Source of the DNA: a virus
Lineage: Duplodnaviria > Caudoviricetes
Virus record (IMG/VR): IMGVR_UViG_3300028888_000053
Location: 1-64,000 of that record
Length of the DNA: 64,000 nucleotides
Reading direction: 5' to 3' (one strand)
The notes beneath the pieces were generated by a model, which was not told the DNA's origin, ran no database searches, and saw only the letters and a program-made list of their open reading frames with translations. This document shows positions 763 to 30,794 of this stretch, in pieces (position 1 is the first letter of the stretch; each line of letters opens with the position of its first letter). A program made the translations under genes and the position numbers.

Positions 763-858
763 ATGAAATTGATAATTGTAATATTATATTTTTTACTTAT
801 TGCTATTATTGCAAGATTAATAGTATTGTTAATTGCTTACTTATTTGATAAGCTTTGA
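763..858 (+). CDS. Possible 31-aa hydrophobic membrane peptide
   Basis: ATG763 MKLIIVILYFLLIAIIARLIVLLIAYLFDKL-TGA. May be a chance product of AT-rich DNA. Confidence 0.3.
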   Translation: MKLIIVILYFLLIAIIARLIVLLIAYLFDKL

Positions 859-3800
859 TTTACCTTTTCTATTTTACCAAGCGTATCTTTAAAGACTCTA
901 ATTCCAGGCATATTATTATACATATATGCTTTCCAATTTTTCTCTCCAAAGATCACCTTCATTCCATCAGATAATACTTTTACAGATACATTTGCTGCAC
1001 TTGGTTCTATATCATCTGTAATATACTAGATCATAGCAAACGGACCTTTAAAACCATCATATGAATTTATAGTAGATTTGTATATAGCTTCTATGAATAA
1101 ATTGCTAAGAAGATTATCAGTATCCATGTTTTTCTTATGTTCTTCATAGGCAGGAGTAAAAAGAAAACCAAACAATAAACCAAACAACCACCACATTAAT
1201 AAATCTGCACAAGCTTTTTTAAAGTTAGCCATTTCATATTTATTAGATTTTAAATATCTCCATGTACCCTGTGGTCCATCTTCTCCAAATACTTTTTCTA
1301 TCAATGTACCAAGTGTAAAGATTATTCCCTATACTGGCAATGGAATTTTATCTATTACTGGAGTATATTTAACATTTGGATCAAGTTCATTTCCAAATTC
1401 ATCAATAAACGTACCGTTGGAAGTCTTTTCAACTATAAATCCGTCTTTATCCATATATAATTCATTGCCGGAAAAATCATCTCGTTTTATTAATAAATTT
1501 CCATCGGCATCTCTAGTAGTAAAATATTCACTATAATATCCTGGTTTTCTAAACCATGCTGCTGCTTGTCCATTTAACCAAGTTGTAAAAACTCCAAATG
1601 TTTGGCCTAAGAATATATTTTCATACATTGCCTTTTGTGATTTGTCATAAGCACCATATATTCCATCTGCGAACATTTTAAACTATCGAATTTCATTTTG
1701 CTAATATGGTTCAGGCAACGGAGTAGCGTTTCCATCATAAGTTATAGTATTATTTGGATGTTCCTGATTATATGTCCGTACCGCTGCATAATATAGAGCT
1801 TTTTGTTCTAAATATTTTGGATGATTTTCATTTCCAGATGCGTAAATTTTAAATCGTTCATCTTCTTTCCAATTATATTTTAATTGATGAGTTTCTTCAT
1901 CTAATGAAAAAGCTCCCCATACGCCGTCTTGTAAACACCTAGCAACAAATAACGTCATTCTATTAAGAAAATCTGGAGCTCTTAATGTTGAATAAGCCCA
2001 TTGATCTGGATTAAAAATACCTCCTCGCCCCATTAAAGCTCTTTCAGAAATACGAGCAGCATCAGTATTTGATAATCTATATCGCAAACAAAGTTCAGAC
2101 ATAATATTAATATCTCTGTCACTTTTAAACATATCCTATAAAACATGTTTATATCCTTTGCGAACATATTCAGCTTTTAAATCATTCTAAAAATGAGTTG
2201 CAGTCCGCATAAAATTTTGCCATAATCCCTCAAATGAATCTCTAAATGCAGATCTAATATTTCCAGCTATAAATAAATGAGACATTAATCTTTTTGCTGG
2301 GGTTAAGAATTCCATGGCCTAAATAGACAGATCCTCCATAATTGTTTTTCCGAAAACATTAATTTTTAAGTATTTTGTAATTTCATCAATACTTCTCTGT
2401 AAAATATCTTTAGCTTTTTGACCTTCTGTGCTTCCTAGTAACTACATTTCCATAATCAAACACTTACCCTAAAAAGCAACCTTTGTTAGTTCTTTTGTCA
2501 TGATTTGCTTCTCAATAAAATGAGCTATAAGATATTCTATATTTGTCTCGAAATAATCATCTTCGTGAGTATTTAATATTTGCTTTCTAACTTCTGGACT
2601 ATCTACAGAAGCTGCCAACGCGTTATGTACTGTCAATTTAAACAATGGTTCATTTCTTTCGGCATTATCAGAGAAATTATTTTCACTCTGTCTTTCTTGA
2701 TGTTTTGATTTTAAATATTCACCAAAACCTAGTTTTCTCATTTTTGAATATTCTTCCTTAAAATGATTTTTTACACCTGATGTGCCATTTTTTATTTGGT
2801 GTGCTGTAGATCCTCTCTCGAGTGGAACTCTAAGATATGAACGTCTATTGTTTTCATCTTGTAGCCAACTTACAATTTTTGGATCGTTATAAGAAGAAAA
2901 TGGGAATGAATATTCTGCAATTCTTTCTGCTTTTAATTTACCAAACTAAAATAAAATAAACTTTAAGAAATCTCTTTGTTTTTCATTTAATGCTGCGCTA
3001 GATACTTTATCATAAGGATTTACAAAATACCATGTTTTATTACCATTAGCATCTACTTCAAACATATCTTTAAAAACACTTTCTGCAGATCCTAATACTG
3101 CGGATTTTACTACTCCGTATCCAGTATCTTCATAAAATTCTTGAATTTTTTTTCGAATAGGTGAATATATTTTATCGAACTAAATAGAGCTTTCATCCAA
3201 TGCACGTGCATATAGATTGGACATATATCTCACATTTTCATCTGGATTTGCATATTGTGGTAACATATATCTTGAAAATGAATCTATCGCTTTAACCTAT
3301 GGACTTTCAATACCATTATATCTATTAATAGTTTTAATACATTCTATATAGATATTTGCGATAATTCTTTTATCTTTATTTTGAGAATTTCTGTCATTAA
3401 TTATAGCATTTGGATCTCTACCATTTTCTATATTTTCTACAACTTCTTGTAATTTAACTATTTGGGCCTCTTTAGATGTTAAATTTTCAAAACCATTTAA
3501 ACCCAAAGAATTAATTAATTCATTTTTTTTACTTGTAGATAATTCACTACCATTTAATAATGATTGAGTATATTGTACAATCAAAGTTGTGGAATCTACA
3601 AATTGTGTTTTATTAAAATTAATTTTATAGTCAGATAAATCAGAAATATTATTTTTTAAATATCTAACAATAACATTAAATTCTTTAACCATATCTTTTG
3701 CATGTCTATAAAGACCGTCACCACCAGAATATGGTGTAATCACTTTAATGTCACCTAATTTACTATCTTCTCCAAGCTCTGGTATAATCTCATTTAATAC

Positions 3801-5597
3801 AGCTAATGCTCGTATAATCTCCATATTGCCATATGTTGCCTCCATTAATGTTGGAGCATTCATATCTTCAGTATAATAACCTAAAATAGTTTTTCTTTTT
3901 TCTTTTAATGGTATAAATTCTCTTGGACGCAATGCACTAGGTACTACTATATCAACCTATCCAGTATTTTTATTTTTAAATAACAATATTCCGCAAGAAT
4001 ATAATTTATCATTTTGTAAAAGTTGCCAATCATGTTCTCCATCTGCATTTTCATCTAAATACATTGCCAATGAAGAATCAGCATAAGCAGCTGAAAATCT
4101 AAAACCTCTTCGATTTTGGAAACCACTTCTTACATTGTAATTATTAATAATTTCTTCAATAAGGTTTTCAACAACAACTGGTTCACCTCTTGCAATAATA
4201 TCTAATCTTTCAGATACTTTAGCAATTAAATCAGGGTTATTTAATGGCGATTGTGGATTAGAAGACTTTATTTCGGTTCCATCTTCAAATGTTACAACCC
4301 ATTCATCATTAATAAAATGAATTTCTTTTATATGTTCTCGAATCCATGTTTTTGCGGACAACTATAAGCCTTTACTTTTAGCATCATATTCTGGATTGAT
4401 ACATCTACTTAAAAGATCAGCTCGCTCTAAATCGGCATGAATGGTTAAATCTCGTATTGGTTCGCTATCAATCTATACAACATTTTTAACATCCTATTCA
4501 TATTTTGTCAAATAATCTTTTTCATTGCGTACAGAATATGTAATAATGTTATATACGCTTAGACTATGAATTTTAGTACAAACTTCATCTTTATTCGTAG
4601 CATCATTATATGTAACACCTAATGGAATATTATAGAAATTGACATTGTTTTGTATATTTCCATCTTTATCTATATATTCTACTGGAATCCCATTAGCTGC
4701 CAAAATACGTTTAATAAGAGCAACCTCATATGTATATTTTAAATCTTTATTTATAGACCATTTTTTTGGATCCATTGTTGTAGTTTTAAAATTAAAAACA
4801 TGAACAACTCCATTTTTGTCTATATATAATTGATCTATATGACATGCTATCGTCTCATCTGATCCTGCTAATTTAGCTGTAAATGTTTTGTTAAATCGTG
4901 ACGTACCTTCATAATCATCTGGTCGCAAACCTTTTAACTAAGTATTTATTTTTTGTTCAATTGTGTTTAAAAAAGTTAATAATATACTTTCGCTATTAGG
5001 ATCATCTTTAATTTTATTCCATAAATTAGGTACATTAGGTTCAACGTACTTTCTTACAAAATCATTCCAAGAGTCACCATTAATTAGATTTCTATGAAGA
5101 AATGCTAAAGTAATTAATTCATGAATATCCCTAGCATCCAACTTGGTTTTATCCCAAGATGTAAATTTCATATCAATTTCTTCTTTGGCCTCTTCTTCTG
5201 TTAACTTATCTGTATTAATTAATGCCTGTGTTGCGTATTTAGCAAATTCTTCTCTATCGATAAACATTCTAGCATTGAACTTCGGCTATCCATCCCATGC
5301 CGTGATACCATACATATCAAGATATTGACATGGTGTAATATATCCGTGATCAAATCCATATTCATCATCAACTGTAGATGATTCTTTTGCAATAAGTTGT
5401 TTCTTTTTAATTGCATCATCAACTTTTTGCGTAGTTATTTCTTTACTTAAACTATGGTGTCCGTCATATTTTAAATTTATTAAATCTTCTTTTGTATGTA
5501 TACCTTTCATTAAAATGAATGTACATAACTAACTTCTAGTAAATTCAAGCGTATATTCACCAAACTTTATTTTATATTTACAATTATCACTTTTCAT
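837..5597 (-). CDS. Giant virion/ejection protein (1586 aa, TAG=Gln) with a PD-(D/E)xK nuclease-like domain
   Basis: Track ORFs ending at 1026, 1329, 1701, 2469, 3297, 3957, 4494, 4938 and 5286 share one frame and end in TAG. Start MKSDNCKYKIKF at 5597, TAA at 837. Motif HIDQLYIDKNGVVHVFNFKTT at about 4779-4850. Confidence 0.8.
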
Positions 5598-5598
5598 A

Positions 5599-8247
5599 TT
5601 ATTTACAATTTTCAACTATTACACCTTCTTGTAATGTATCACCGATATTACTATCGATAAAACGATTTGCAGCTTGTGTGATTTTTGCATCTGGATCAAA
5701 TCCAATACCTAATTTTGTTTTCGTATTTCTTACTAATGATGATAGATTTGCTATTATCATAAATGGTTTTGTAGCGTTTTTATATAAATCCGGCAATGTT
5801 AAGTTATCAAAAATTGTACTCGATGTTACAGCCTCATCAACTGGACCAAAGAGATCAGAAACATTTATATTTTGATCAACGGATAAATATTTAGAATACA
5901 TTTCAGCAAAAAGCTCTTCTAGATAATATAACTCTTTTTCATCTTCAGATAACTACTGAACAACTTTTAATTTCGCATATCTGTCTTTAAGAGAATTATA
6001 AGCCTGTGCTAATCTTACATTTTCAGGCTGTTTTAATAATTCTCCTAATTTCATTAGTAATCCTTGATAACTATTAGGATCTTTGACTTTTAAAATTCCA
6101 ACTAGTAAATGTGCATATTCATGAAATAATGTACCATAACTTGCAGATGATGCATTCAAATATATTACACCGCCATCATGAAATCCATGTCCTTCAATAC
6201 CAAATCGTTTGATGTAATCTTCATTACTAAGAATTTGTACCTAAATACCATGCTCATTAAAAATTGTAGCCATTGACTATAATGTTAAGAATGACGTACT
6301 AACTGGCTATATTTTTTTTGACGGTGTATCATCATTAATATTGCTAGGTAATTTTGTCACAAACATAGTGGACTAGTGAGTAAATGGATTATAAACCTAT
6401 GTGTTAATGGCATATAATATCTCTTGCGCACTGTCTATTTCATCTAAAACATTTATAACATCATCTTTATATAATTCATATAATGTTGGGTTTAAATAGA
6501 ATGAAGCATTTCTAGCAAAATGTGAATAAAAAATAGCGGCCTTATCGACTGTATTCATTTTTGCTAAAATATCCTGTGCTAAATCTGGATCAAAAGTAGT
6601 ATTTACAAATTCTTCAAACTATCCCATTGTATAACCATAAGGTAAATTGTAGGGTCCTTTTGTATAGTCGATAGTAGCAACAATATCTCCTACTTTATAT
6701 TGTCCTCTAATAGTTATTTTTGATACATCAGAACTAGCTTTTTGTAAATCAGTATGATCAAAAATATACATAGGAATTTTATCATATGTATTGTTAATAT
6801 ACTATATAACATCATTCTTATCTAAGAATTTTTTTGGCGCTTTTGTATTTCTTGAGAATGGTTTGTTTGTTGCAAAATATTTTCTTACACCTTTATCTTC
6901 ATATGAATAAATATAAAATCCTTTGTAACGATCTTCCAACTATGGCAATAATTCTGTATTTGACATAAAATCAAGCTCATCAACCAAGGAATTATATTTT
7001 CGTTTAAAGAATAAATGTTTACTATCAAATGAATCCAAATAATAGTTTGCAGATTTTTGTCCATAAAAGAATCGTACCAATGACTCAATTGGTTTCTTTT
7101 TGATATCTATTCCTCGCTATTTAAAATATTCCTTAACTGTTTGAATGTCTAGAACTTTTAATTTTCCATATGGCTTCATTGCCGTTTCCATCGTTAGTAC
7201 TAGATCATCATTTGTTGTTATATTGTAATTCCAGCCTAGTAAAGTCCGTATTTCTCTAACTACATTATAATATGTATCTAAAGATAAATACGTTATCCAG
7301 TCATTCTAATGCGTAATAAAGTGCTCTAAAAACTCTTGTAGATTATTAATATCTGGCAGATTCTTTTTTTCCTTTATGTTATTTAATTGATTGGAGAATC
7401 TTTTAATTGTTTCGTCATTATAATAATCACTATCAATCTATTTAATTTTAATATCTAATTCAGCTTCTTTTGATGCAATTATTTTATTAAGCTCATCAAT
7501 TTCTTTTTCCCATCTTGCAATTCTATCGTTTAATATTTTTCTTCTAGCTATTTGAGGACGTTTTGGATTTTCGTTTTGATTTAATTCTTTTAAAGCAGTT
7601 TGCGCTGGTATTAACCACTATTTCTAAATTCTGTTTATTTTCTATTTTTCTTCTATAGCATCTTTATCCTTCTTATATCTATTTTTTAAGTCTTCTTTAT
7701 ATTTTTTAATTTTATCATCTATTTTTTTAATGTCTGAATTTAATTCTAATTTGACTTTCTTATCATATAATTCTTTCAGCGCATCCAATTCTTTTGATTC
7801 GAGATTTAACTTCTTAATAATATTCTTTAACCGAATATGCATAGCAAAACCCTTTATGTTTGCCTTCGGAACTACATAAACTTCATTTGCTCCCTAAATA
7901 ACTCTTTGCATTCCCCAAAAGTTTTCAGATCTGATATTTTTATTATCATTTACTAAAATTACAGGTGGAATATCTGAGTCTTGACCCCAATCTTCATCTG
8001 GAAATGCAATTAATAAATCATCCTTTGTATGTGTTGGAACCAATACATCATTTGGATTATAATCAACTAATTCTGATTTAGTGAGAGCGTCTCCAATCTA
8101 TTGAATTAACGCCTTTTTAGTTGCATCATCAACAGATTGGAGGCTTTCTGCAATGGTTTGTAAACCATTAAAATCACTCTCTTGTTCAAAATTAGTCTCA
8201 ATTTCAATTGCGCCGTTCTTTGTGTTAAAGATAATTTTACACGCCAT
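5599..8247 (-). CDS. Virion/ejection protein with C-terminal zincin metallopeptidase domain (882 aa, TAG=Gln)
   Basis: Start MACKIIFNTKNG overlaps the upstream stop. Frame shared with ORFs 5599, 5953 and 7642. LFHEYAH (6109-6123) plus downstream LEELFAE. Ends VENCK-TAA. Confidence 0.8.
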
Positions 8248-11200
8248 GACAATCAATTCTAATTTTTAATATTCTATCACGTTCTAATTGATCTAATATT
8301 TGTTTAATATAATTAACGTCTTGTCCACTAAGTCCATTTTCTATATATTTTGGCATTCCAATACTTGGTGCATATAATACAGCGTCAGACATAAAATTAT
8401 ACAATCTTTCAGCTTTTACTTCATCGGATTCTCCTTGTAAAAATTTAAAAGCTTGATATTCTTGATATCCAGTTCCGGCAGGTGCATATGGATTTTCACG
8501 CATTTCATAATGAGATCCTTTATAATCTGTTACTATAATGAATTTTTCCTATGCTCTGCGTTTGGTATATCTTGAATATATAGGAGCCATTTTAAATTGT
8601 GCAGTTTTAGTATCAAATGAAAGTTCTGTAGTTAAATAATCTTTTAGTCCACCATTCATAAATGCGAATTTAATTTTATAATCTTCTTCTCCAAGATATT
8701 GGACATAATCTGAAATTAAATTGGAACCTTTCATTAAAGATGTCCCAAATAACTATGTCATTCTATCATTACCTGGTCTGTTTTTATAAACTACCAGACT
8801 ATATAACATTACATAATCAGCTAACTTATATGGAGTTTGATTAAAATCATCTAATCGTCGCAAAGCTAACATAGCTCTCTAATATTTTGCAGCGGCACTA
8901 TTATCTTTTTCAATATTACTCATTCTAAAAGACATTTTTTTAATTGGATAACCAGACTCCATACCATCAATAATATATTGTGTTAAATCATATAATGTAG
9001 AATCAACTTTGATTTTTTCTCCATTAATGTATACAATACCATTTGCTATCTGTGGAAGCAGATAATTTTCAAACCATTTTTTAAAACTAGCTACATCATA
9101 ATATGTTTTTAAATCCTGCATTACACTAATTTGATTTTTCTAAATATCCATACTTTCTGTATAATACTCTTGACCTTTGTTAATTGGGAATTTAATATTC
9201 CTATCCTACAAAAATTTAGATATTAAGAGTTCGTCAGAATAGTTAATGAGTTTTTTAATTTTATCTTCATCAAAGAATACTTTTTGCTATTTAAGTAAAA
9301 TACGCATTTCATCAACAATTGCGGCTTTTACAGACGATATTCTTAAAATCTAATATACCGTATCATAAGCCTAAAAAGCGATAAAATGATTTGGTATTTT
9401 TGTTATAACATCAAAAATATTATAAGTATCTTTAATAATATTGTAAAAATCAATAGCTAATTCTCTATACTATTCATCTGTCATAAATCTATGAAAGTCA
9501 AAGGCAGTATCAATATGTGCATTGGATGCTTCAATAATAATATCATTTGCATTTAATGGTAATATTTTCTATGATGCTGTAAGTTTTTCATTAGTTTTAT
9601 TTATATCTAACTAATTTGTCGCTTCATCATAAACTATATATTTTGCAGCTTGAGACTCCATCATATTTTCAAATCTATGTATTTTGTGTAATAATTCAGA
9701 AAAGCTTGTTGGCATACCTCGATTCCATCCAAGTAACGTACCTAGATTTGTTGTTTCCTAAGAACGATTGTAAACTTTCTCAAATTCATCAAGGTCTTTT
9801 TCTAATCCATCATTATCTTGTAGCTCAGCATACTATTGTTTTGTTGCTTCTATTTCACTCTATATTATAGAATACTATTCATGTAATCTAATAAATTTAA
9901 GCCATATTTTTTTATGCTCATCTGTTATTAATTTATTTTTAATCGTATTTAAGTCTTCTGGATGAGTTTTAAACCAATCAAACATGGCTTTAAACTTTCC
10001 ATCATTAGTTGTTGTATTATAGTTTGTAATATGTGTTGCAAACGGTTCTACATACCTTATTTTCTAACGATCGAAGTACAATGATGTAAGGCTACCATAA
10101 GCAATTTGTAATTCAGGTGTTGAAATATATTTATAAAGATTAATTTCACCTTTAGCTTTTGCAATTGCATCTTTAACTTTGGTAAAATTATCATATTCAT
10201 TAAACATATTTACTTCCAAAAATTTCGAAATTAGCTCAATAGCAGGACTCGTCATAAAAGAAACAATATCTGCCAAATCATATCCTTCAATTAATAAGTG
10301 TAAATACACTCTTGCAAGATCTTTTCCTGCATTAATTTTATTTAAAATTAATTCTTTTGCATTATCAGTTGCAGCACTTAATAATTGAGATATTAAAAGG
10401 TCTGCCTATGTGTGATTTTCAATCTATCGATATGTTTCTAATGCAAGATCTTCATTTGATATAAATGGATTGTTTGATTTGATAGCATCCTAAATAGCTG
10501 CAATATTATTAAATTTAGCTTTTAAATCATCTGCATTTTCAATGCCATACCAATTTGTATCTGCAATTGCTGTTTTAGTCATTTTAATTGGAGATTGTTT
10601 TGAACGATTCTGTATACGAGTAGTAGTAGATATAAATCGTACTCTTTCGGCCCATTTATCGTCATTAGAACGAATAGCTTCATTCATATAATATGTTAAA
10701 TACATAAACACTTTTTCTCCTACGGCTGAAATGCCAATTACAGCTTTACCATCCATATTCTATTTCTACATGATAAATTTTGTAGCTGGATTCATTCCAG
10801 TCAAACTATAAATTAGATTTCCTTTAGAAGATCTATCAGATTGCTTTCTTAAATCACTAATAGTAATTGGAGAATATGCTAATGGCATATTTTTAGGATC
10901 TGAACTAACAATCTAAGTTCTAGCAGATACTGCGTTTTTATAAATATCTTCTCTCTAATCTGGATTAATTTTTGACAAGAAATCTTCATGAGATTTTATA
11001 TTTTCTAAAATATAACGCAAATTATCAAGCACTGGTTTAATCGTTATTGTTTTATCTATTGCAGCCTCATCAAGTTTTTTAATTAATATAGCATATTTAT
11101 TAATCATTTCAACTTTTCTGCCAGCTTGGTCTAAGTTAGCAATTTCCTATAAATCATTATTTATATCAATAACTGCTAAATCGTTTTCAGAAATCTGAAC

Positions 11201-14200
11201 ACCAGCAGACGTTGGTAATCTTAGTGATGCATTTAATGTTTCTTGTGATGCAAAATCAAATAATGGTGACCACTTTAAAAACCTTCCATTATTATCAAAT
11301 GAATAACCCATGATATACGCTTTATCAATATCATAGTCAGATCCTTGTAATAATGTCTATATATGAGATACCATACATTCATTTTCTCCAATAGGAATAA
11401 ATCCAACTAGTTTCATTTTCATATAAGACTATAATGATTGAGCTGGAATTCTTGCAACAGTAAAGTATCTTGATAAAACAAACGACTCTTTTACCTACTA
11501 CTTTAATTTTTCATATAATTGCGTTATAGCTTCAGTATAAGTTATAGCCTAGCCATTTTCTTCAATTCTAAATGGATTACGATTTATATATAATCCTAAT
11601 GCTGTTTGAGACGGATCACTAATTGCATTTACAAATTTAGATGCAATATTTATTGATTCATCATAAATATCATCTATATTAGTTCGATAATGAAGAATGT
11701 CTGTTAATAAATTTAGATTTTTACTATTTTTATTTAATTTTCCATTTAACTGTACGGTTACACAATTAGAATCAAGTGCAATTCTATATAATGCATTGCC
11801 AATAAATTCCTGTACAGACTAGTCGGAGTATGTTTCAATGGCATCTTTATCAAAATAATAATAAAGTTGATTTTTTGTTCTTTTACCAAAATCTACAGTG
11901 CCATAATATTTTTTTACAAAGTATATATTTTGATATACTTTACCATCTTTATAACACAATTCTTTTCCTGTATCTTTTTCTACAAAAATATCTCCTTTAA
12001 TTACCCCTTCTACAACTTCGCCATTAGTTCGTACAAACTACTAATGACGCTAATCATAACGGTAGTCTTGAGTTTCTGCCTGAATTCCGATTTGATAAAT
12101 GGGTTCTTGAATTTCTTTATCTCTTGATAAAGCCATAATTCGATTGCCAACTATTTTATGTCTAATGGTTTTTGTAGATAATTTTTGCGCTGGTTTTTGA
12201 AAACAAATTCCAATCTATTTTTTATTTCCAACTAAAATTAAATCAGAATCTGGAATTATTAACTGATTAAATTTACGGGGAACAAAAGATTCAATTGATT
12301 TTGCTAATGTATTATTACCTTGTCCAAATGTACTTTTATAAATATTAGACATCATTAACTCGGCCTCTTGTACATTTATCGAATTGTCATCAATTTGTAC
12401 ATTTTCCTATAATACTACTTTGCCAGTATTATCATCATAAATATATAATGATGCTATATGATTATCTACTAAATTATTTATTGCTTGTTGTATTGCATTA
12501 CGATCACGATTACCATAATATAAAGCATCTCTAACAGGTTTAAGGTTATATAAATTATTAACCTTTCCTCCTATTGTGAACTATATTCTTTGAGGACGTA
12601 AACTTCTAGGTTTTGTTAAATCTTCTTTAAATCTAACATTCTTAGATAACAATATTATATATTCATTATCTAACTCTTGCATAAATGATTGTGTAGATAA
12701 TACTTCTTCTAAGGCATCTTCATCACTTATAGTAGTACCTTGTGAAGCGTAATATAGAATAACCTAATTTTTATACTCCTCTAATTTTGTATGCAATAAT
12801 TCAAGATAGTCTTTAGCTGAAATTGATTTATCTTTTCGGTGTTTAGCTATGAAATGATCCCAATCTCTATCAACAAAATGATAGTAGTCTGTAATATCTT
12901 CTAAATCAAAATATACATTTGGATGCCCATCTATTACAGCAATATCTACAGGCTGAAATTCATCTATATCTTTATAATTAGATTGTTCTTGCACATCATT
13001 TAAGTATGCCTGAACTAATAATTTATTTTCTTGAATCTACGAAATTTTTTGCGATGTATATATTGGTATTTGATACTATTGATCATTAGAATCAGTACTA
13101 CTTACAAAACCTGGATTAAAACCAAAATTCTATAACTAATCAATTTCTAAACGCCCACTTAATGTGGTTTCATTGTCTAATGTTATTTTAGAACCTATTG
13201 GTAAAAAGTCATTTAATGCTAAATATAATTTTGTTCTTTCTAAATTAGTTAGTTGTCTATTTGCTGGGACTCCAGATTCAGTATCTAATTTATAATGAAT
13301 AAAATATAATTGAGGATCATCATTAGACTAAATGATCTCGAAACCAATTTGATGCTCATATCTGTCAACATCCTGTAAAGATTCATTAAATCGCCACGTT
13401 CCAGTACCATTAAGAGAGAAGAACCAAGCATTGTTTTGCACTCCATCGTCAGAAGTTTTAATATACTATGAAGTTTTTGCATTCTATACAATTCTATTAA
13501 TGGCATTTGTAGTAATAGTTCGTGCTCTTCCATTACCAATTTGTTCAACATATTGTATAGAAGAAGCCTTTTCTAATACATCATCAAATAATAAGTCTTC
13601 TTCTCCAATATGGAATATTTGAGCTTTTTTATATCCTGGCACCATAATAGTACCAAGACCAGCATATTTTCTTTTTAATGCTTTTTTGTTAATCCTACTA
13701 GTAAAATTAGCAATAATATCATTAAATATATTCGGATCAGAAATTGGTAGTTTAAAATCATCAAACTAATGTCCGTCACCTCTAATAAAATTAGCCTTAA
13801 GAGCATTAATAATATTCGTACTTAAGTCTGTAATATTTCTTGCAATATATGTATTGATAAATGATCTTGCAAAAGTATCATAAATATCTGATGCTAATTG
13901 TTCTCTTTCCTATGGAGTTGCATTTTTATTAATAATATTAATGAGTTGCTCAACTTCTACTCTTAATCCCTCTGCTGCAACTCTTCCAAGGTCCTAAAAT
14001 GCCATTTTAGCAAATTCATGAGTATAGCCACCAGCGTCCAACGATGCAATTACCTATGTAGGCTCACTTAATTCCGCCTAATCTGCTTCATGGTCACCAT
14101 TTTGCTAAATTCCAAGACCAGCATTACTTAATACTGTATATAATAAAGAAGAATCATCTGTGTAAGCATTGCTACTATTAACGTTAAACTAACCTCTTTT

Positions 14201-17200
14201 AACAGCTGTTGTATTAGCGGCGTATCCTATATGATAATCTTTAAGTGGTTGGCGCCAATTATCCTAATTTAAACTTTGATTTTGCAAATCTTCTCCTACC
14301 CATTCTGTTACATTATTCATGAATGCAACAACTGCGTAATTAGAATTTTCAGACCATGTATAACCATCTTCATTTTTTTCAACGGAATCAACACCACCCA
14401 TTGATGTGTGTAATTCAAACAAAGAGTTAATTGTGTGTAATTCTGTATTAGAATCCATATATTCTTTAACTCTCTCCTTAAATTCTTCTTGACTTTCATC
14501 TGATTCTTGCTCTATCTTAATTATATTAGAATTATTATCAAATAATTGTGCCACCAAATGATATTGCTGCTGAGTAACAACATTTGGCCCATTAACATAT
14601 TTTTCTTTTGTAAAATATGTATCAAGACTTTCATCGTATTCTAACCCTATAATCTATTTTATTATATTACGCTTTTGATAATAAAGTGCATTACCTTTTA
14701 CTTTAGATAAAATATCAGAAGTAAAATCTAATGAATGTATACTTTTGTGATTAGAAGATTGTGTTAAATCAATAAAATTCTACCACTATAAATTAGTCAT
14801 TTTTTTAAATAATTTATAGTGAGAATTTTCTGAATCCATTGAAATTCGCATCTGTCCATTACTTAATGTAAATGTAGCAAACTTCAATAAAACCGATGTA
14901 CCAGTAGCTGGATCATAATGATACCAAATAGGTTTTTTATTATTATATCCAGCCTCATTTGGTCCAAGGCTATAATTCTCCATGATAGCCTAAAATGGAT
15001 TTATCCAAGCAGAACCATCGTCGGCATCTTCAGTTCCAATATCTCCATTTGGAGTGAAATATGGTGCCTACTCATCAGATATAATTGCAACCTTAGTAGT
15101 TTTTCCAGTACCAGTAAAAGCATTCATTTGAAAATCTGTACGTGTAGCTGGAATAATTACATTTCTTTTATACTATGTACCTTCACTAGTAGCAATTACT
15201 CGATACATCAAAGACTGATACTTTTGTAATAAGTAGTTTACTTTTTGCTGAGTTATACGACCTTCTTCGTCTAAATTTTTCAATAATTGAGATACTCTTT
15301 CAAATGCTGTCTACTAATCATATATATCCGGTGCATATGTATCTGTATAGAACTCTTTTAATTGGTCTTCATTACCTGGTTCTAATAAAGATTGATAATA
15401 CTCTATATCATCTAAATTGTCCCTTAATAAAAATCCATATGAATCAATTTCATGTGATAAAGATACTAAATCTGTGTGTTGTAATGCTGTTAGTTCTTCG
15501 TCGGAAAATAAAGCTAACGACTCTAGCTCTTTGCGATCCTTTTTAGTCCTATCTGTATTTTGAGAATTTGGATCAAAATCTTTTGAAAAATCAAGATTTG
15601 CTGCTTTTAATGGATCAGAAATTTCATTGCCAAGTATAGAATATTTTATATTACCTGACACAATATTATCAACATAAAAATATTTTTCTAATAATGGATT
15701 TAATTCAATTCCTTGTTCATCAATATTTGCAAGATCTCGAGAATAAAATAATTCTTTATTGTTATATTTTGCAATTATTAAACGACCATCTTTAACCCAT
15801 TTCTACAAAAATGCCTTACGTTCATCAGAATCTTTGAAAATCTAAATTCCAGCTTCTGTTCCTCTATTGATAAGACTGGAAAAAATAGTTTCATCTGTCA
15901 AAACAGATTCAGTATAAAATTTAACATTATTATCAATTAATGATTTAACAAAATTAAATTTTTCTTTATAGAATCTAGATTTAATAGTTTCTTCTGGATT
16001 TGGCCCACTAAATAAATCATAATAATACGCAGATAGTTCATTTAAGCATAACTTACCAGTTAATTTGTTTTTTCTGTAATGAATATCTTCGCCAATATTT
16101 AATTGTTCGGTAGGATTTGATTCATTCCATTCCCTTAATTTCTATTCTAACTCAGATTTAGTTATTTTCTTTAATTCTTTATTAACGTCTACTTGTAACT
16201 GTTTATATCCAACTCGAGTATCTAAATTAAATAATTTAGCCAAATCATTTAAAATATTTTCGTGCTATTTAACTAAATAAGAGCCAACAGTTTGTGTATA
16301 TAATTTAATATATTTATTTTCGTCTAATGTAAGTAAAGTCTGGTTTTTAAATTCATCTCCAAATTTATCCAATAACTTTTGCATGCTAATTGTAAATAAT
16401 GCAAAACTAGTTTTATCTGAATATACAGTTGGCATGATTTGAACCTATTTAGACGAAAGAAGTTTATTAAAGAAATCATGAGCTATGGCATTATATAACA
16501 ATTCTCCAGTATTAGAATCTTTAACCATTTGTTCATGTTGATCCCAGCTACTTAATTCAGTTCCATAAACCACGTCTTCAATAAAATATGGATCTCTAAC
16601 AAATAATGTTGATTTTGTTGGGCTATTTGTTTCCTTTGATAACTTATATAAATTATACTAAGTCTGTTGTAATGATCCGAGAGAAGCTGGTCTATAGTTA
16701 GGTCTAGCATTACCATCTAAACCACGTGTAGAAGAATCTATTGCACGACCATTTAAAATATTTTGTGCAATACACCATGGATCAATCCAATCTTCTTTGC
16801 TGGCAGCTACAAAAACAGCCTTTCCATTTCGTCTTTTAATTGCAGTACGCTTATTTTTTATCAACAGATTATAAGCATTAATATCATGTTGCTGAAGATA
16901 TTGAGTAAAGTTCTATACTTCATCTTGAAAATCAAAATCAGACATAAATTGCTATTTATAAGCAATTTGTAGTGCATGAATAAACATATTTCTTACAGAA
17001 CCACCATTAATTTTAAAATAACCTAATGTTTTCATCCCATCAGGTGTAAGTAGACGTAATTTTAGAAAATCATCTATAAATTCTAGTAATTCTGTTGTTT
17101 GTTGATACGCTGGATTCTTTGCTAAAATATCTTTTTGAATTTGCGCTCCAAAGTTTTTAGTTAAATTTTTTAAATAGTTATAATTCAAAGTATTAATTAT

Positions 17201-19294
17201 ATTTTGAATCATCTATTTATCTTGCTCATTCGAAAGCTATTTCATCATTTCTTCAAGCAACTACACAATCTAAGTTCTTTTTTGCTCATCTACAAAAGGA
17301 TTTTCAATTGCTTGAATAATCAGAGCTTCTTGATCTTGATTTAAATTAGAAAACATAGCATCTAAATTACTTAAAAACTATATTTCATTTTCATTTAATA
17401 TTGGAACCATAGAGATTCCAATATTTTTGTCATTAACAAAAGTACTAATACCAGAACTATTGTTAGATTGAGTAGCAATAATTTTATACTAACGTTCTAA
17501 TTCAGTATCTTTATTTAACGTAATATATAATGTTGAAGCATTTTCAATATGAATATTGTATTTATCCAAGACTCTAAATCTAGAATCATATGAACTTCTT
17601 TCTAAACCTATATTTAATGAATTAATCAAATCGTGAGTTTGTACTTGTAATGACCCATGTTTAGAAATATTTTCAGTAATAGCCTATCCACCTTCATATT
17701 TAGTTCTAGCATATACTGCCGGTTGATTTCTATCAAAAATACCATAAATCACATCTTGCAATAAGTATTTTCCAGTCGGAGTAAGTCCCTACTATATACT
17801 CTCATCTTCTATACTTTTAATGGACTATGATTTTATTCGCTATATATCTCTAGGCTATTTAGATATTAATTGCGCATAAATAGAATATAAAACATCTAAA
17901 TCAGACTCACTTAATAGCCCTCCTTGTACAGATAATAATTTTGTCTATAAAGAAGAATTGGCTCTATCAAATAATAACTAAAATATAATTGGAATGTATT
18001 TATTTAAATTATCATGAGCTAATAAGACATCTTGTTTAAATACCGTTTCTTCTTCTTGTTGTGTTACTAGTTTACACGTTGTCTAAACTAAATTACCCCA
18101 TGCGCTAGATATTGCAGTCTAATCAATTTTACTTTCTAATTGCGTGCCATTTTTTCTATCGTATAATATTAGAGAGCCAATTAAAACTTTTTCAAATTTC
18201 GTTGTTAACTTAATAGCATCTCTAATTTCTCCAGCTCTCCAATCTTTTACTGCAGAACTAGTGTCTTTTCCAATTGCATATTTGATTAGTTCCTATTTCC
18301 CATCTGATGAATACTAAGAAGGCTCTTGTGGTAATGTATGATCTATTTGAATAATATCACCAAATTCTTGTTCTATAGTTTCATCAAAATGACTTACATT
18401 TAAATATGCATATATAGCCTCTAGTCTTTCATTAAGTATACCATCCGCTAAATACTATTCAAGTGCAATATCTAATGATATTTCTGCCTATGATGTTCTG
18501 ATATACTATCTGAATTTCTATAATAGAGAATCAATATATGTTTGTTTTACTTTACCATTAGCATCTCTATACGAACGCTCAACTGTGAAATTTTTATCAA
18601 TATATTTTTTAATAAAATTTCCAAGCAATCTATACTAACTATTTTTATATGCGGCAATAGAAGCATTTAAGCTTGCGTTATCTGTTACAATAATATCTTG
18701 CTGTGTAAGATCTTTAATGAGTTCTAATGCTTCATTTTTTTGTTCTCTAGAGAATTGTAATTGTTCGCTACTAGCTAATTTTTGCCAACAATCTTGAATA
18801 TACGCACTAGCATCATCATAATCTTTTTCTGGAGGCATTAATTTTTGTAACCTTTCATATTTATTCTAAAGAGACTCCGTATAAAAATTATGTCTAATAA
18901 TTAAAGATTTAAAGATACGTCTACGAAATATATTTAATCTATATACTTCTAATAAAGCATTCCCAGAAAATAATTCCATATAATCGTCATCTAAATCTAG
19001 AATTTCAGATTCTTGATTTTCAGCTTCATTCTATGCTGATACTAGATCAGAAATCATTGATTTTATTTCATTAATTGAATGGTTTTGGGCCCATGTTGCA
19101 TGAGCCCTAATATTTTCTAAAGATGTTATTCCATCTTCACTTTCAAACCATTCCTATAATAATCTTAATTTATCATCCTGTCTTCCGATCTATTCAAGAA
19201 TTTTATTTGTAACTTTTTCTAATGAATCATATTCAGACCCATTTTCATATATTCCCGTTACATCGTCGAATTTTAAAGTAATTTGACAAGCCAT
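8237..19294 (-). CDS. Virion-packaged single-chain RNA polymerase of crAss-like phages (3685 aa, TAG=Gln)
   Basis: Twelve track ORFs share this frame. Catalytic GSDYDIDK at 11321-11344, preceded by ARIPAQSLQ(TAG)SYM. Beta-like EDADDGSAWINP at about 15000-15030. Starts MACQITL, ends RIDCHGV-TAA. Confidence 0.9.
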
Positions 19295-19295
19295 A

Positions 19296-22200
19296 TTAAT
19301 CACAATTTGTAATAATTAAATTATTCCAAGAGTCTTCGAATCGATCTCTATTATCTTCATTATCATCTAACACTGCCATGAGTAAGTTACTATATTCTGC
19401 ATATATTGTTTCATGAGTTACGCCTTCTCCAAATTTAAGCTTACCATTTTCTTCTATTATAACTTCTTGATCTTTAAAATAATTTACAATAAATTGTTGA
19501 ATATAATCATCATTTGCCATATACTGTTGTAATCTAGCTAATAACTAATCCTCTTCGTTATTACCTGTATCTACAATTGTAACATTATTAGAACCAGGAT
19601 TATAAGAAATTGATTTATTGCCATCACTAATGATTATATTATTAAAATTCTATGTATAAGTTAAATTTTCTGATTTAAGATCATAATTTTGTATAATGAA
19701 CTAAATCATATTTGGAATTTGTTCAAATGATTTATTTTGCAAATATGAGACTTGTTCTGATATTGATAAACGCTTAAATCTTTCATCGTTATCAATTACC
19801 GCATTTCCAGTCGCAGCACTAGAAGCTTCTTGAGCTCCCTATACTTCAGACTATGTTTTATGAAATTTAAAAGTAAATCTAGGCATATCTACTGCCGTTC
19901 TAACAAGAAATAACGGATTCATTGAAGACTGACATTCTGCAAATAGTCCAAAATTTTCTACATTTACACCATTCTAAAAGCCTTGAATTTCAGCTTGTGG
20001 ATCTATAAAAAATCCATTCGGGAAATAAGCATCGCTAGATTGTGGCTCTACTTTACTATTATATTTTTGGCCATTACTAACTTTGGTTTGTAGTTTTCCA
20101 TATAACTTACTATCAATTAAACCTTTTGTATTAGATGTCCCATGGAAACATAAGTCAAGAACTTTAGGGATTAATCCACCATATTTTTCTATAATATCTC
20201 TTACCTATAAAACATGCGTTGCTAATAATGTAGCTTTCTCCGAATCTTGAGAATGATCATATTCTTTAATTTTAATAACAGACGACATGTTCCAATCCCA
20301 TTCTCTAGCTGGTTTATCACCACGTGCTTGTAAGAAACCATTTTCATCAAGTTTGCTATAAGCCATAGCTCTGCTAGCTATTTTTACTAATATCATAGGG
20401 ATAAATTTAGTTAATCTTGTATCCTATGCGCTATCAGTATTACCATGAACAATACTAAATGCAGATGTGTTTCCACTAATTTCATTTAAAGATTTAAGAA
20501 TTGAATGATCTTTTATATTAACACGTACGTCCTATGGTATAATGCTATTATCTCTATTATCGCGTATTTGTATTCCCAATGGATCCGTAAAGCTATGGTA
20601 AATATCATCGATAATATCGATCATCTACTATAATCCTTTTGTATTGGTACAAATAAAATTAATAGCATTTCTATATGATTGATTTTTCTTTGCTTTTTGA
20701 GCAATCCTAATCTATTCTGGCATATATGTTAAACCAGGTTCTACATCATACATGCGAATTTGCCAATTATTATCATTTCCTACACCCAATCTAAATTGTT
20801 TAATTCTATTTTGATCACAATTGTCATTAATTTCCCATATCTATTCGCACAAAGATATATTATCTGGCTACTATTTTTTTACATAATTTCTAAATCCATT
20901 TTCTGTTGGATTTTCAGTAGTTTCTGAATACTCCTAATACTGTTTATGTAAATATTGTAAAGTAGTATCTATATCTGTATCTGATAGATTATAATGTTTT
21001 TTCCATTTATTTAGATAATCAGAGAATAATAATAAATTTGCCCTGAAATTGTGTAATGCTATTAATTGTCTTTGACCCATATAATCATTTTCAAAGGGAA
21101 GTTTATTGTATTTTGCACCTCCCATACTAGCTTTAGTTCTGAAAATTTCATCATAATCATTATTACATAGATCTGATAATGTACAACCAGCATTATCTAA
21201 TATAATCATACGAACACTTCTATTTGAAGTGACAGATTTTCTTTCACTTAACCATGTCTGTAAAAGTGTGTTTGAATCTAATGCCATATTTCTAGATACA
21301 AAAATAACCGCTTTACCACGAATGCTTTGCATCCCACTATTTTCATCATCAGATTGTGTATACTTATAAATATATACTGGAGATATTCTTAGATATGGAT
21401 TTTTACGTCTAAAATTAGTCTATTTTTGTAATAATTTATCGTCTTTTTCAAATGAATCTAATCGCATTTGTGCAACTTGTTCAAATGGTATAATAGTATT
21501 ACCATTTTCATCAGTTTCTTTTAACCATAGAGCATTTTGTATAGTTCTCAATACGGTATTTCCATTGAAAGTAACATCCCCTATCTCTAATGAAACTTCA
21601 TCGCTATTTTGATCAGATCTATTTTCAAATGCAGCCCTAGCTTCGTCTAAATTTCGTTTATATGAAGTTTTGACAGTTTCGAAATTATTAATAAAATTTT
21701 GTAATTTAGAAATTATATTTTGTGCAAGAGGATTCGAGCTGCTTTCTAGTTTTTTAATTCTATGATTTATTGCTTGTAATATTTCCTGTTTTCTCAAATC
21801 GAAATTATCAGGATTCTAAAGTTGGCCTAAAGTTACACGAGCCTATTCGCCATTTTTTGTAGTAAATTCTACTACAATTCTATATACTAGAGCATCGTGA
21901 TTTCCATCACCGTTAATAGCAGCCTTAGATAGCAATAGATCAGAATATCCTACAAACGAGTGTTTATTTTTATCTAACTTAGATACAACTAATTTATACT
22001 TTTTATTTTTAAGTATATTTTTTATTTCTTCTTGTGAAACAACATCTTCTAGTCCACTAGTTGCATAAGCTGATTGGAATTGATCCGATTCAGGATATAT
22101 ATTATACAATAATATACTCTTAAAAACAAGTAATGAATTAACTAATTTATCTTTTGTGATTCCATCATTAATTTTTGAGCTTTTTTGCAACATCTATGGA

Positions 22201-25200
22201 GTTACAAAAGCTTCTATATCATTTAATACATGTCCATCAGTTCTATCTGGTAAAATCCATTCAATTGTTTCTTTAGTCTATCCTTGCTGATCTGTAGTTA
22301 CATTTTTTTCATAAGGAATGCCAAGCATGTGAGATTCACCAAATGCCAAACCTTCATCAGAATCAAATTCATCTTCAGTACTATTAGTATTTATTTCTTC
22401 GTTTGCTTGCTCATTATGTAGTTCTGTAACAGCTGTCTAATCAAAATCCAATGTTGGAGAAGTTAAATCTGGCATTAAATCATCTTCCATTGAATCAAGT
22501 GCAATTAAATCAAGAAAATCATCTCCAACATCAGCATGTGGAGCAACATTATTAGTTGTCTACTGTGGTTTTTCTTCTGCTTGCTACTACTATACGGTAG
22601 TTGTCGGCACAATCTTTAAAGATGCCATCTAAGCTTTAAAATGTTTTCTAAATTTATTTTTAGCATCCTTGCCAAAATTTGTAGATGTATTCTAAAATCT
22701 TTGATGTTCGTTATTAGTAATTATAGTAGAAAGAACACCATCATCAATAAATATAGAACCAATTTTTCCTCGTGTTTTTAATGTATAAAAACGCTTCAAA
22801 AAATCTAATGTATTTGCATGTTGTATCTAAAGATCTTTTGTACTAATTGGTTCCCATTTAGTATTAATTATTATATAATCGAATTCTTGTCCCTATAAGG
22901 CAACTTCATTATCAATAACAATTAAATTATCTCCAAATTTTGCTTTTAATACATCATATCCAGAAGTAGATTCAGATCCTAATAATCCAACCGTTATTTT
23001 TTTATCTCGTATCTATTTTGGTAAATGATCAACTAATTCTTTAGAAATTGATTTTGTTATTAAATCACCATTCAAATCTGTATTATCATAGTATGCAATT
23101 TTTAACTGTTTGAAAGCTTCTAGAGCTTGCTAAATTAAAACATTTCTAGTCGCTGAATCAGGTATATCATTAAACATTCTAATCAATGATACCAATTGAT
23201 ACACATTCTACTAACTTTGATAATTAGAATCACGTAATGTTAATGATATTCTCGGTGTTTTTCCAACAAAACATTTTTCTTGATTGAGATTTTCATCTAT
23301 ACCATCAGTATTTTTATATCCAGACTGATAATCATCTCCCAATAGGATAAATGGAATATTTTCTTTTGCACAATACTAACTTATAATTGATAACTATAAA
23401 GTAGAAAAATGTGTAGCTTCGTCCAAAATGATTGCAGATGGCTTTGATGTAGTTAATGTATATATTAAATTCTTTGATGCTGTCTAAAATGATTTTTCAT
23501 CTACACCAGTACGACTGTCAATAAAATTGGAAGTATTTACACCAGTCTTTAAATTATTATATGTAGTTTCACCAATTAACTGTTTGCATAAATCATCTGG
23601 AGAAAACGTTTTTCCACCAGTAATAGTACCCATTTTGTTGTACTACTGTGGTTTTGGTGCACAAACCCACAAACTATCCTTTTTAATTTTCAAATGATCC
23701 TACATAAAACTTGAAATTGTTCTTAAAACAACTTCTGTTTTTCCTGCACCACCATTTCCTGAGATAAATAATCCTTCTAATAAAAAAGGATTTGGAGTCT
23801 TTCCACTATCGGTCTATTTATATTGTGCATGACTTGCGATCCATTGTAATCCGCTACGATATATTGCAACATTTTTTGTATATGCCATACCAATACGTGA
23901 TACATACTACTATATAGACAATGGCGCAAGATCTTCATTTTCATATAATTTAACACTCTACATGTATTCATAATATTCATTTGGAGATAGACATGCTAAT
24001 GTAGTTAAATACATGCCAATGTCCATTGGTGTAAATTTATGAGCACTAATCTCCTAATTTAATTCACATGTAGTTTGTTCTATTAATGTATCATTGTTGG
24101 TGAAAATAACGTTATTTAAACCAGACTATTCCATAACTTCTTTAAAAGTTTTCTATGTTTCATACATAGCCTTCTAAATATTGTTATAAAACAGCTATTC
24201 AATTTTAGTTAGTTTTACAAATTCATCTGAATCATTAATTGTTTCATAGCCTTCTAATAAATCGTATTCATGCGTATTTCCATCTTTGTCAGCAACAGAT
24301 ACTTTTGAAAACGCTAATTTATGATCATCAAAAAACTTTAATTTTGCTTTAGTAAATTTTATATCAGTATTAATGAATTGTTGCGATTTATTAACGGCAT
24401 TTAATGTGTCATAATATCTCCAATGCTCTATTTCCTATAACAAATTATTTATTTGCTATGAATACAATGGAGCAATATTATCATCTATTACAGGCATTAA
24501 TTCCATATTTAATTTATGGTCTTTAATGATCTCGTTCATTAATTGGTTATGTGGATATAATGTAGATAAATTTCTACTATTATATGCAGAAACCATATAA
24601 TTTAATGCCATGTTTAATAAATCTTCAGCTTCCTACAATGTCTATTTCTACTATTCTGACAAAGTAAAAGTTTTAAATCCTTCCCTATCCATCGAATCCA
24701 TCAAAGATTCTAAAAGGGCATCTATTGATTTAACATCTCTATTAAAAGCTAAACCTAATTTATGTACAATTCTTATAATTGGATTTTCTATTGGCTTAGC
24801 ATGTTTAATGGCTTCTATTGAAGAATAAATACCATTAGCAAGAATACTTGCTTCAACTTGGCTTAGGGTAGATACAATTTGCTATTCAATTTGTTTTGAT
24901 AAATTAGAATTATTTAATGAACCTCCTAGATAATTGTAAGTATTACGAACATCACCAGTGTCTTCATCTTGATAATCTGAGATCTAAATAAAGTTGGTGA
25001 TATCTTGGCCATTATACTAATTTATAGAATCAACAATAGCACCTATATCTAATTTACCATCTTTAGTTTGTGATAATTGTGCAACAATAGAATCATCATT
25101 TAATAGAACCTATAAAATTTTTTGTCTAGCTTTAGAATTTTCAGTATCAAAATTATCATTTGCTGGATCTCCACTAAAAATAGAGAAATCGTCTATAAAA

Positions 25201-28200: not shown

Positions 28201-28874
28201 TGTTTACCAGCAAGACTTCTTCCATTTAATGTTTCATAGTAATATTTACCATCATCATTTAATTTCAGATCTCCTTTCTTATGTATTTTAACTGTATTGT
28301 CAATTGGGTCAAGATATTCTTCGTCTTCATCATATGCTGCAAGAACAAGTGGCTCTTTAAAAATATCTTTAAACCACTATAATGGATTTGAAAATAGCGC
28401 ATGATCATTTGGTGAATATTCTAGATAGGTGCCAGTTTTGGTATCATATACAGAATTTCTCTAAGCTAATTCTCTACTAGAAAATGGAGATTCTTGAGTT
28501 TCATTAATCCACCCATACCCAATAGTGGATTCTTCTGGATTATCAACTTTAAATAAAGTTAAATTTGGATTTGTTACACGAGCATTATCTTTGTCATATC
28601 TTCTATAGTCAAAAAGATCGTACTACAATCCGTTTGGAATGCCTGTAAATATTTTCCATTGCTATGATACCTAATTATAAAATTCGTCAAATTTAGCCTA
28701 TGAAAAGACGCCATCTTCATTTTTAAATGCGTCATTATCTTTAATAAAATTACTTGATAAATATTCCTATTTTGATAAAAGCTATGTATTATCCATATTT
28801 AATCCAGCAGCTCTTAACATACCAGTATCATACGTTGGATTTAATAGGCTTGATAATAAAAAATCGTTTTCCAT
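19296..28874 (-). CDS. Giant virion/ejection protein with SF1 helicase-like domain (3192 aa, TAG=Gln)
   Basis: ORFs 19296, 20205, 20934, 21420, 21843, 26562, 26856, 27249 and 27879 share one frame. Start MENDFLLSSLLNP. Motifs GNGGAGKT, ILDEATH, LLGDDYQ, QGQEFD and YTLKTRGK. Gly-rich hydrophobic segments near the N-terminus. Confidence 0.85.
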
Positions 28875-30792: not shown

Positions 30793-30794
30793 AA

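Follow-up and report, generated by a model that had tools for sequence, protein, structure and literature searches.

The analyzed window of 64 kb is the first part of the 212,277-bp IMG/VR virus record IMGVR_UViG_3300028888_000053. With genetic code table 11, almost no open reading frames (ORFs) are found across positions 1-32000. Reading TAG as glutamine (Gln; TAG=Q) results in a continuous minus-strand gene array, which includes four consecutive giant genes at 837-28874. The analysis described here concerns cysteine (Cys) residues at the ends where the four encoded proteins, named A to D in gene order, face each other. The four genes are the following:

19296-28874, minus strand: protein A, 3192 residues with TAG=Q, first link of the proposed chain, no N-terminal Cys, P-loop region at about residues 1700-1850
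8237-19294, minus strand: protein B, 3685 residues, virion RNA polymerase (vRNAP) homologue, GSDYDIDKAY at residues 2651-2660
5599-8247, minus strand: protein C, 882 residues, zincin-type, HEYAH at residues 709-713, only cysteines Cys3 and Cys881
837-5597, minus strand: protein D, 1586 residues, last link of the proposed chain, N-terminal Cys6, no C-terminal Cys

An earlier sequence-only reading of this DNA had quoted peptides with a near-terminal Cys on both sides of the A/B, B/C and C/D junctions, and the junction DNA reads exactly so in all three cases. Protein A ends in ..NLIITNCD and protein B starts with MACQITLKF.., the end of protein B (..LKIRIDCHGV) overlaps the start of protein C (MACKIIFNT..), and protein C ends in ..GVIVENCK, followed by protein D with the start MKSDNCKYKIKF. 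The upstream end thus consists of a Cys plus 1-3 residues at each junction, and the downstream start of M-x(1-4)-Cys and then an alternating hydrophobic strand. The six ends are located as follows:

19299-19325, minus strand: C-terminal tail of protein A, NNLIITNCD, Cys3191 codon at 19302-19304
19235-19294, minus strand: N-terminal module of protein B, MACQITLKFDDVTGIYENGS, Cys3 codon at 19286-19288
8240-8272, minus strand: C-terminal tail of protein B, LKIRIDCHGV, Cys3682 codon at 8249-8251, overlapping the start of protein C
8197-8247, minus strand: N-terminal hairpin of protein C, MACKIIFNTKNGAIEIE, Cys3 codon at 8239-8241
5602-5628, minus strand: C-terminal tail of protein C, EGVIVENCK, Cys881 codon at 5605-5607
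5538-5597, minus strand: N-terminal module of protein D, MKSDNCKYKIKFGEYTLEFT, Cys6 codon at 5580-5582

The two outer ends of the series, the N-end of protein A (MENDFLL..) and the C-end of protein D (..QSLSNK), are free of Cys, and Cys is sparse in the giants (38 in 9345 residues or 0.41%, compared with 1.3% genome-wide), both as had been described. Protein C contains no Cys besides Cys3 and Cys881. In the other 202 genes of the 212-kb genome, a Cys is located within the first six residues in 8 and within the last five residues in 13 cases. This background of 4-6% of gene ends compares with six of six junction-facing ends in the window. The chance of finding six of six at three consecutive junctions is about 1.7e-8, or about 3e-6 if 200 placements are allowed.

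To cover related phages, a census was carried out on 16 genomes with 27 junctions (crAss001, phi14:2, DAC15, crAss002, Suoliviridae, Crevaviridae, a cyanophage and uncultured lineages). The Cys pairs co-occur, with a Cys on both facing ends in 26 of the 27 junctions. Counted by ends, a Cys is present on 53 of the 54 that face a junction and on none of the 27 outer ones (Fisher 1e-20, for genomes that are mutually related), the latter comprising 11 outer N-ends and 16 outer C-ends. In total, the 92,809 residues of these proteins contain 177 Cys, of which 53 are terminal, with about 0.9 expected from composition. In most comparisons, the flanking sequence around the terminal Cys has diverged beyond alignment.

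In phi14:2, the single Cys of gp67 (1797 residues) is its last residue, gp66 (2180 residues) contains Cys3 and Cys2179, and gp65 (1421 residues) only Cys3. These are the only four Cys in 5398 residues, and all of them are located on junction-facing ends. The crAss001 proteins gp47 (2341 residues; only Cys2339), gp50 (2412 residues; Cys5, Cys1334 and Cys2404) and gp49 (1349 residues; only Cys5) follow a chain pattern with Cys at the C-end only, at both ends and at the N-end only, respectively. In Lbo-JY46, a cyanophage of Leptolyngbya, the first of two giants has a single Cys as its last residue, and the second giant a single Cys at residue 4. The same rule was found in DAC15, IAS virus, cr116_1, crAss002, three Suoliviridae, one Crevaviridae member and Lbo-JY46. 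The first protein is encoded on the other strand in crAss001 (gp47 versus gp50 and gp49) and in DAC15. A terminator lies between the genes at the Cys junction of crAss002 and a 35-nucleotide spacer at that of the relative L005, and the rule is kept in both. Since crAss001 gp47 lies on the opposite strand, the rule acts at the protein level. The observation is confirmed across the order of the crAss-like phages.

The Cys pairs also move with the split points of the genes. Fusion points were located by BLASTP against the crAss001 and phi14:2 proteins, and the pair is kept at none of six. The first two proteins are fused in Suoliviridae and the last two in crAss002 and cr127_1, and in Lbo-JY46 the zincin is embedded in a larger protein. 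The cr55_1 giant (4551 residues) has only Cys4026 and Cys4548, and its fusion point is near residues 2030-2190. Compared with phi14:2, the lineage of the window has one extra break and one extra Cys pair.

Breaks of a different type were found within the vRNAP gene of three IMG/VR relatives, which is split inside the catalytic ..LQGSDY/D.D.. by inserts of 0.35-2.4 kb (L007:5333-5688; L011:4760-6159; L012:3792-6171). These inserts resemble self-splicing introns that may or may not encode a homing endonuclease, and no Cys-Cys signature is present at these three breaks. In cr116_1 (MT774389), an ORF of 215 residues with a LAGLIDADG-like motif (..LLIGLLIGDGTI..) is located at L019:15680-16327 between ORFs of 2507 and 833 residues. 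As the latter two look like one gp50-type gene, the insert probably represents an intron that encodes a homing endonuclease. By coincidence, the piece of 2507 residues upstream of it ends in ..IKMC.

Furthermore, for two start codons the Cys rule outperformed the annotation or the ORF caller. In crAss002 (NC_055828, L017:9270-9420), gp33 has an in-frame ATG AGT TGT (MSCTPS..) 32 codons into the annotated gene. This ATG fits the family motif and is separated from gp32 by a terminator-like hairpin with a T-run, so that the start given in the annotation is probably incorrect. The second case is the giant ORF at L013:5976-8870, where a GTG start overlapping the end of the upstream gene leads to MANNCIPKIIIGG.

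Conservation of the terminal Cys was observed for distant orthologues of all four proteins. On a 196-kb contig, a protein C homologue with 71% identity keeps both terminal Cys, and its neighbours do likewise. All four protein A orthologues P0004-P0007 (77, 55, 43 and 39% identity) have a Cys 1-2 residues from the C-end in tails that are otherwise unalignable (..KECE, ..DNCM, ..GKCEI and ..TFCI). The gene following the protein A orthologue starts with MSTCGFKFKL in L003 and, beyond the 35-nucleotide spacer, with MSCKINIKFG in L005. Protein B orthologues (22-31% identity) start with M-x(1-6)-C (e.g., MACSINLKF, MIECNIKIY, MAECKVLAK, MDKCTFD and MANLIEACVF) and end in Cys or in Cys plus one residue. 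When the last 150 residues of 12 orthologues are aligned, no column other than that of the C-terminal Cys is invariant.

For protein C, an exhaustive profile search resulted in 49 homologues. Nearly every full-length one starts with M-x(1-5)-C and a strand-like stretch and ends in C-x(0-3), with endings such as ..IIQECD, ..IIEDCE and ..IKENCK. Among 35 homologues with a mean column identity of 17%, the invariant columns are M1, C3, I695, H709, E710, H713, Y757, E777, E778 and C881, i.e., the terminal Cys pair is conserved to the same degree as the HExxH metal site. Cys6 of protein D is the sole invariant Cys among nine orthologues, of which eight are 19-31% and one is 86% identical; their starts include MKNCTYDIV, MECRYKIVN, MNCTYTYKG and MSTCVYKLGG. 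Seven IMG/VR loci, all TAG-recoded, have the same terminal-Cys pattern in B, C and D. No match was obtained for proteins A, C or D in a PHROGs search, for protein C by tblastn against GenBank phages, or for protein C in a single-protein pattern scan of IMG/VR.

The anatomy of the connector was derived from 68 unique N-ends and 66 unique C-ends. Of the N-ends, 65 have their Cys at position 3-5. Positions +2, +4 and +6 after it are hydrophobic in 87, 76 and 65%, respectively, and G, N or D follow at +7/+8, a pattern that describes a putative amphipathic strand leading into a turn. In 65 of the C-ends, 0-3 residues follow the Cys, with [IL] at -4 and [EK] at -2. A His or a second Cys within 10 residues of either Cys occurs at 0-3% of positions. 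With a lone Cys at each end and hardly any His or further Cys nearby, the ends fit a disulfide better than a zinc site. They also do not match an inter-chain zinc site of the zinc-hook type, for which at least two Cys/His ligands per partner would be expected; no CxxC-type motif is present. A split intein was rejected, since the topology is reversed, Asn at -1 is not conserved (13 of 66 ends) and no Hint/intein family was found at E<=0.1 in the four proteins.

In the AlphaFold2 (AF2) model of protein C (mean predicted local distance difference test score, pLDDT, of 78.7), an N-terminal hairpin is formed by strands 4-9 and 12-17, and residues 868-882 are unstructured with a pLDDT < 50. For protein B, AF2 was run on the last 150 residues and likewise predicts a free tail of 13 residues at the end. 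The sequence-only reading had called both sides of the junctions beta-strand-like. This description stands for the N-side, where hydrophobic alternation and the AF2 hairpin agree; on the C-side it is drawn from the sequence pattern, because AF2 leaves the tails of B and C free, at low confidence. Free tails of this kind are what one would expect of a strand that depends on a partner. A complex prediction with TAG-free segments (B 3583-3685 and C 1-49), run without alignment, gave no answer (score 0.05). A Foldseek search of the protein C model against PDB found no match at E<=0.001; the weak top rows belong to zincin protease domains and cannot serve as evidence.

The proposed identity of the proteins is supported for B and C. 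The GSDYDIDKAY motif of protein B, proposed as a vRNAP, aligns to the DFDID site of phi14:2 gp66. BLASTP places residues 2615-2670 of protein B on residues 1322-1374 of gp66 and also matches crAss001 gp50, crAss002 gp33 and the cr55_1 giant. With E-values of 5e-5 to 6e-4, the four matches are weak, yet they share one site. The catalytic motif is located at position 1361 in gp66 (DFDID) and at position 1483 in gp50 (DFDVD). Because the motif of protein B aligns to this catalytic site, the four-gene block was assigned to the RNAP-associated cargo block of crAss-like phages. Protein C is supported as a zincin by its HExxH motif (HEYAH, 709-713), which is invariant in 35 homologues; in the Lbo-JY46 giant, the HEFMH region aligns with it. 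The claims on the outer two proteins fared worse. The helicase assignment of protein A relies on P-loop matches (AAA_30/AAA_22) that are all below the Pfam cut-offs, and PHROGs, domain and D-profile searches gave no support for a nuclease-like protein D. Since a profile of nine protein D orthologues had no match in gp49, gp65 or the fused giants, homology of D to the third protein of other crassviruses stays unsupported.

The gene at 59142-60563 encodes the major head protein, which matches phrog_11589 (1.4e-8) and shares about 24% identity with capsid proteins of named Crassvirales; no PHROG match was found for the other head/tail module genes nearby. The phage is considered a divergent, TAG-recoded crAss-like gut phage whose four giants are probably packed in the head and injected, and their genes represent a four-way split of a known cargo block. 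Virion mass spectrometry exists for crAss001 and phi14:2 only (PMC10172136; bioRxiv 10.1101/2020.03.07.982082).

Taken together, a head-to-tail link between the giants, most likely a disulfide, which would make a pseudo-polyprotein, is the reading to which we lean, if by a modest degree. At each break, a connector of two parts is present, with a short flexible tail [IL]-x-[EK]-x-Cys-x(0-3) on the upstream side and M-x(1-4)-Cys with an amphipathic strand and hairpin on the downstream side. The tail of protein n would run antiparallel to the first hairpin strand of protein n+1, and the two Cys would meet at the would-be hairpin turn and form one inter-chain disulfide. Continuity, which relatives gain by gene fusion, would be rebuilt by this bond. 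The product would be an A-B-C-D thread of about 9300 residues with 1:1:1:1 packaging and ordered passage through the tail, and it would fall apart into active subunits in the reducing cytoplasm. The sequence data establish the motif, its conservation, the logic of its pairing and its dependence on breaks in the polypeptide, from which we infer a disulfide bond, a chain within virions, ejection in order and release by reduction. The activity of gp66 in dithiothreitol (DTT) would be as expected if reduction frees a working enzyme.

Two of the sequence tests proposed with the sequence-only reading, on co-occurrence of the Cys pairs in orthologues and on their shift with split points, were passed, and the reading is supported in part. 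It had the proteins linked in gene order. The Cys pairing, its conservation and its dependence on breaks fit the head-to-tail order of a chain, but the order of the genes is not required for linkage, because crAss001 gp47 lies on the opposite strand. The connector is apparently an undescribed feature of the known cargo block. No paper on these terminal cysteines or on the linkage rule was found by a full-text literature search, and the word 'cysteine' is absent from the crAss001 atlas (PMC10172136) and from the gp66 preprint (bioRxiv 10.1101/2020.03.07.982082). The wider proposal, that crAss-like phages and at least one related cyanophage carry their injected RNA polymerase machinery as a redox-cleavable thread of 6000-9300 residues with one disulfide per break and with fixed stoichiometry and order, which the reducing host cytoplasm would release and activate and for which the host redox state would signal arrival, is tentative and falls somewhat short of probable.

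Several points weigh against the disulfide-linked chain. The bond is read from sequence, and the C-terminal connector motif is short. The status of proteins A, C and D as virion proteins is inferred from synteny and from the homology of B only. The Fisher value overstates independence, because the 16 genomes are related to one another. In crAss001, the Cys of gp50 is 8 residues short of the C-end. In L013, a zincin protein of 645 residues (8876-10813) has no C-terminal Cys though the next protein starts with MSTC; this is the sole irregular junction among the 27. The end counts fit head-to-tail pairing and self-closure of the middle proteins alike. Furthermore, assembly takes place in the reducing cytoplasm and many of these phages live in the anoxic gut, so that the timing and route of an oxidation would have to be explained. 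A search of the phage for an Erv1/ALR sulfhydryl oxidase found no match, but the controls were equally silent and the result is hence uninformative. Outside the window, at G000:C1:198894-199136 on the plus strand, a small ORF with a thioredoxin/glutaredoxin fold was detected (Pfam Thioredoxin 3.9e-12, Glutaredoxin 2.2e-7). It is the sole thiol-redox gene found in the phage and is not diagnostic.

Since reducing assembly and an anoxic gut disfavour a spontaneous disulfide, some weight has to be given to head-to-tail docking through a shared metal (e.g., Zn, or an Fe-S cluster that bridges at least two junctions) or through non-covalent strand pairing in which the Cys are packed, although this is rather unlikely. 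It follows the same pairing logic (26 of 27 junctions, 0 of 6 fusions), a metal would be favoured by the anoxic niche and the reducing assembly compartment, and acidic or amide neighbours of the Cys are common, with E/K at -2, N/K/E/D at -1 and K/T/D at +1. A tetrahedral site, however, would need four termini or carboxylates, given that only one thiol is available per end and that His or further Cys occupy 0-3% of positions within 10 residues, and packing alone hardly explains why the Cys is strictly invariant and never replaced by Ser, Ala or Val. Pairing might also not be head-to-tail at all, with the middle proteins closing on themselves and the first and last pairing together, or with homotypic dimers of the same end. 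Balanced numbers of N- and C-terminal Cys in nearly every genome would agree with self-closure, and several copies of each protein per virion are possible (PMC10172136). We regard pairing other than head-to-tail as improbable, since the only possible heterotypic pair in the two-protein systems (Suoliviridae, Crevaviridae, crAss002, Lbo-JY46) is the C-end of the first with the N-end of the second protein, so that pairing of C-end n with N-end n+1 is the most straightforward reading elsewhere. Homotypic pairing does not account for Cys-free outer ends (27 of 27) or for the loss of Cys at fusions, and AF2, as weak evidence on self-closure, leaves the tail of protein C unstructured and unpaired with any strand.

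In other phages, peptides at protein termini are known to target proteins to the capsid. The termini could be independent motifs that dock to a common scaffold, portal or chaperone or serve as processing or modification sites, so that the Cys never meet. Proteins B, C and D have a similar N-terminal hairpin module, as binding to a shared receptor would predict, but a shared signal would also be expected on the first N-end and the last C-end (0 of 27) and should survive at some fusions (0 of 6), and the two motifs come and go together; the chances of this explanation are slim, even a little below those of self-closure or homotypic pairing. Chance, a gene-calling artefact or translational coupling at the nucleotide level, at overlapping stop and start codons, can practically be dismissed, as the comparative data already refute it. 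All six Cys codons of the window are TGT and located within 20 nucleotides of a stop or start, which is what coupling would suggest, but the rule survives a 35-nucleotide spacer, a terminator and opposite strands. For chance, the value is about 2e-8 in the window alone, and the rule is kept at the amino-acid level at 17-30% identity; intron-like interruptions of the vRNAP gene do not create the Cys signature.

The crAss-like phages are the most abundant viruses of the human gut. How they pack and inject megadaltons of protein, including an RNA polymerase, is an open question, and the order and interactions of the cargo are described as unknown in the structural papers (PMC10172136; PMC13434306). 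A conserved end-to-end connector such as the proposed disulfide link would supply a mechanism for stoichiometric packaging, ordered threading and release, and it would explain the evolutionary interchange of fused and split gene forms. For annotation, the rule can be used to find true starts and boundaries and to tell real breaks from interruptions by introns; the starts in crAss002 and in one IMG/VR contig (L013) were corrected in this way.

Concerning the genetic code, 99 TAG codons are present in the gene of protein A and 95 in that of protein B, and TAG encodes Gln in nearly all large virion genes. The genes at 36252-37589 and 45671-46273 are among the few with zero TAG codons. ARAGORN predicted six tRNAs in the 212-kb genome, including a tRNA-Gln(TTG) at 168919 and an odd tRNA at 162988, and no CTA suppressor tRNA. 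The N-terminus of protein A (28800-28874, minus strand) is conserved among its orthologues as M(K)E[NH]D[FW][ILF][LV]..L.NP.. and could form the front of the thread or act as a docking peptide. Upstream of protein A, at 28876-35744 (minus strand), two genes encode proteins of 638 and 1649 residues, neither of which has a terminal Cys; the larger one is entirely free of Cys. Their orthologues in L005 have GG-rich N-ends (MSQYIKKLQAGG.. and ..MQNGGGMPPFTY..) reminiscent of crAss001 gp45 (..GKMPPNIFDTGG..), and the two proteins may be counterparts of the crAss001 cargo proteins gp45 and gp46. Within the virion-gene array, a gene of the zinc-containing alcohol dehydrogenase superfamily is located at 37582-38679 on the minus strand (phrog_2640, 1.8e-42). 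This gene is shared with the relative L005, where it matches ADH_N and ADH_zinc_N and is followed by a DUF192 gene.

Among known systems, phi14:2 offers the crystallised two-barrel virion RNA polymerase gp66 (Drobysheva et al., bioRxiv 10.1101/2020.03.07.982082), a protein that is active alone in DTT and was handled in DTT or tris(2-carboxyethyl)phosphine (bioRxiv 10.1101/2020.03.07.982082). Protein B shares its catalytic GSD[FY]DIDK, a zincin HExxH domain is located in the same block, and the terminal-Cys rule is identical. Differences are that phi14:2 has three proteins instead of four, with the zincin inside gp65 and not in a separate protein of 882 residues with its own connectors, that BLASTP similarity is undetectable beyond the catalytic motif, and that the window belongs to a 212-kb genome with TAG=Q. 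In crAss001, gp47, gp50 and gp49 are virion cargo confirmed by mass spectrometry and presumed to leave the virion in a partly unfolded state (Bayfield et al. 2023, PMC10172136). They have the same terminal-Cys pattern as the giants of the window, from which they differ in the opposite strand of gp47 and in the gp50 Cys 8 residues from the C-end. Disulfides were reported in the tail of the crAss001 structure, not in the cargo, and the cargo proteins are unresolved in it (PMC10172136).

The three proteins form a 'single huge polyprotein' in some phages (Drobysheva et al., bioRxiv 10.1101/2020.03.07.982082). Such fused giants (Suoliviridae, 4300-4950 residues; crAss002 gp33; cr127_1, 4133 residues) have the same domains in the same order within one covalent chain. 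Their continuity is given by peptide bonds and no Cys pair is present at the fusion, whereas the proteins of the window would restore continuity post-translationally. The vRNAP gp50 of coliphage N4 is also a giant ejected chain (about 3500 residues), thought to pass as beads on a string through a narrow tail (PMC13434306), but it is a single, non-homologous polypeptide with a T7-like RNAP fold and no terminal-Cys connectors. Naturally split inteins resemble the connector as two-part elements that restore continuity at a gene break, one part of which opens with a Cys and then a strand. They are larger, with about 100 + 35 residues compared with modules of about 5-20 residues here, and their arrangement is the reverse of that in the window, where the Cys-strand opens the downstream protein and the Cys tail closes the upstream one.

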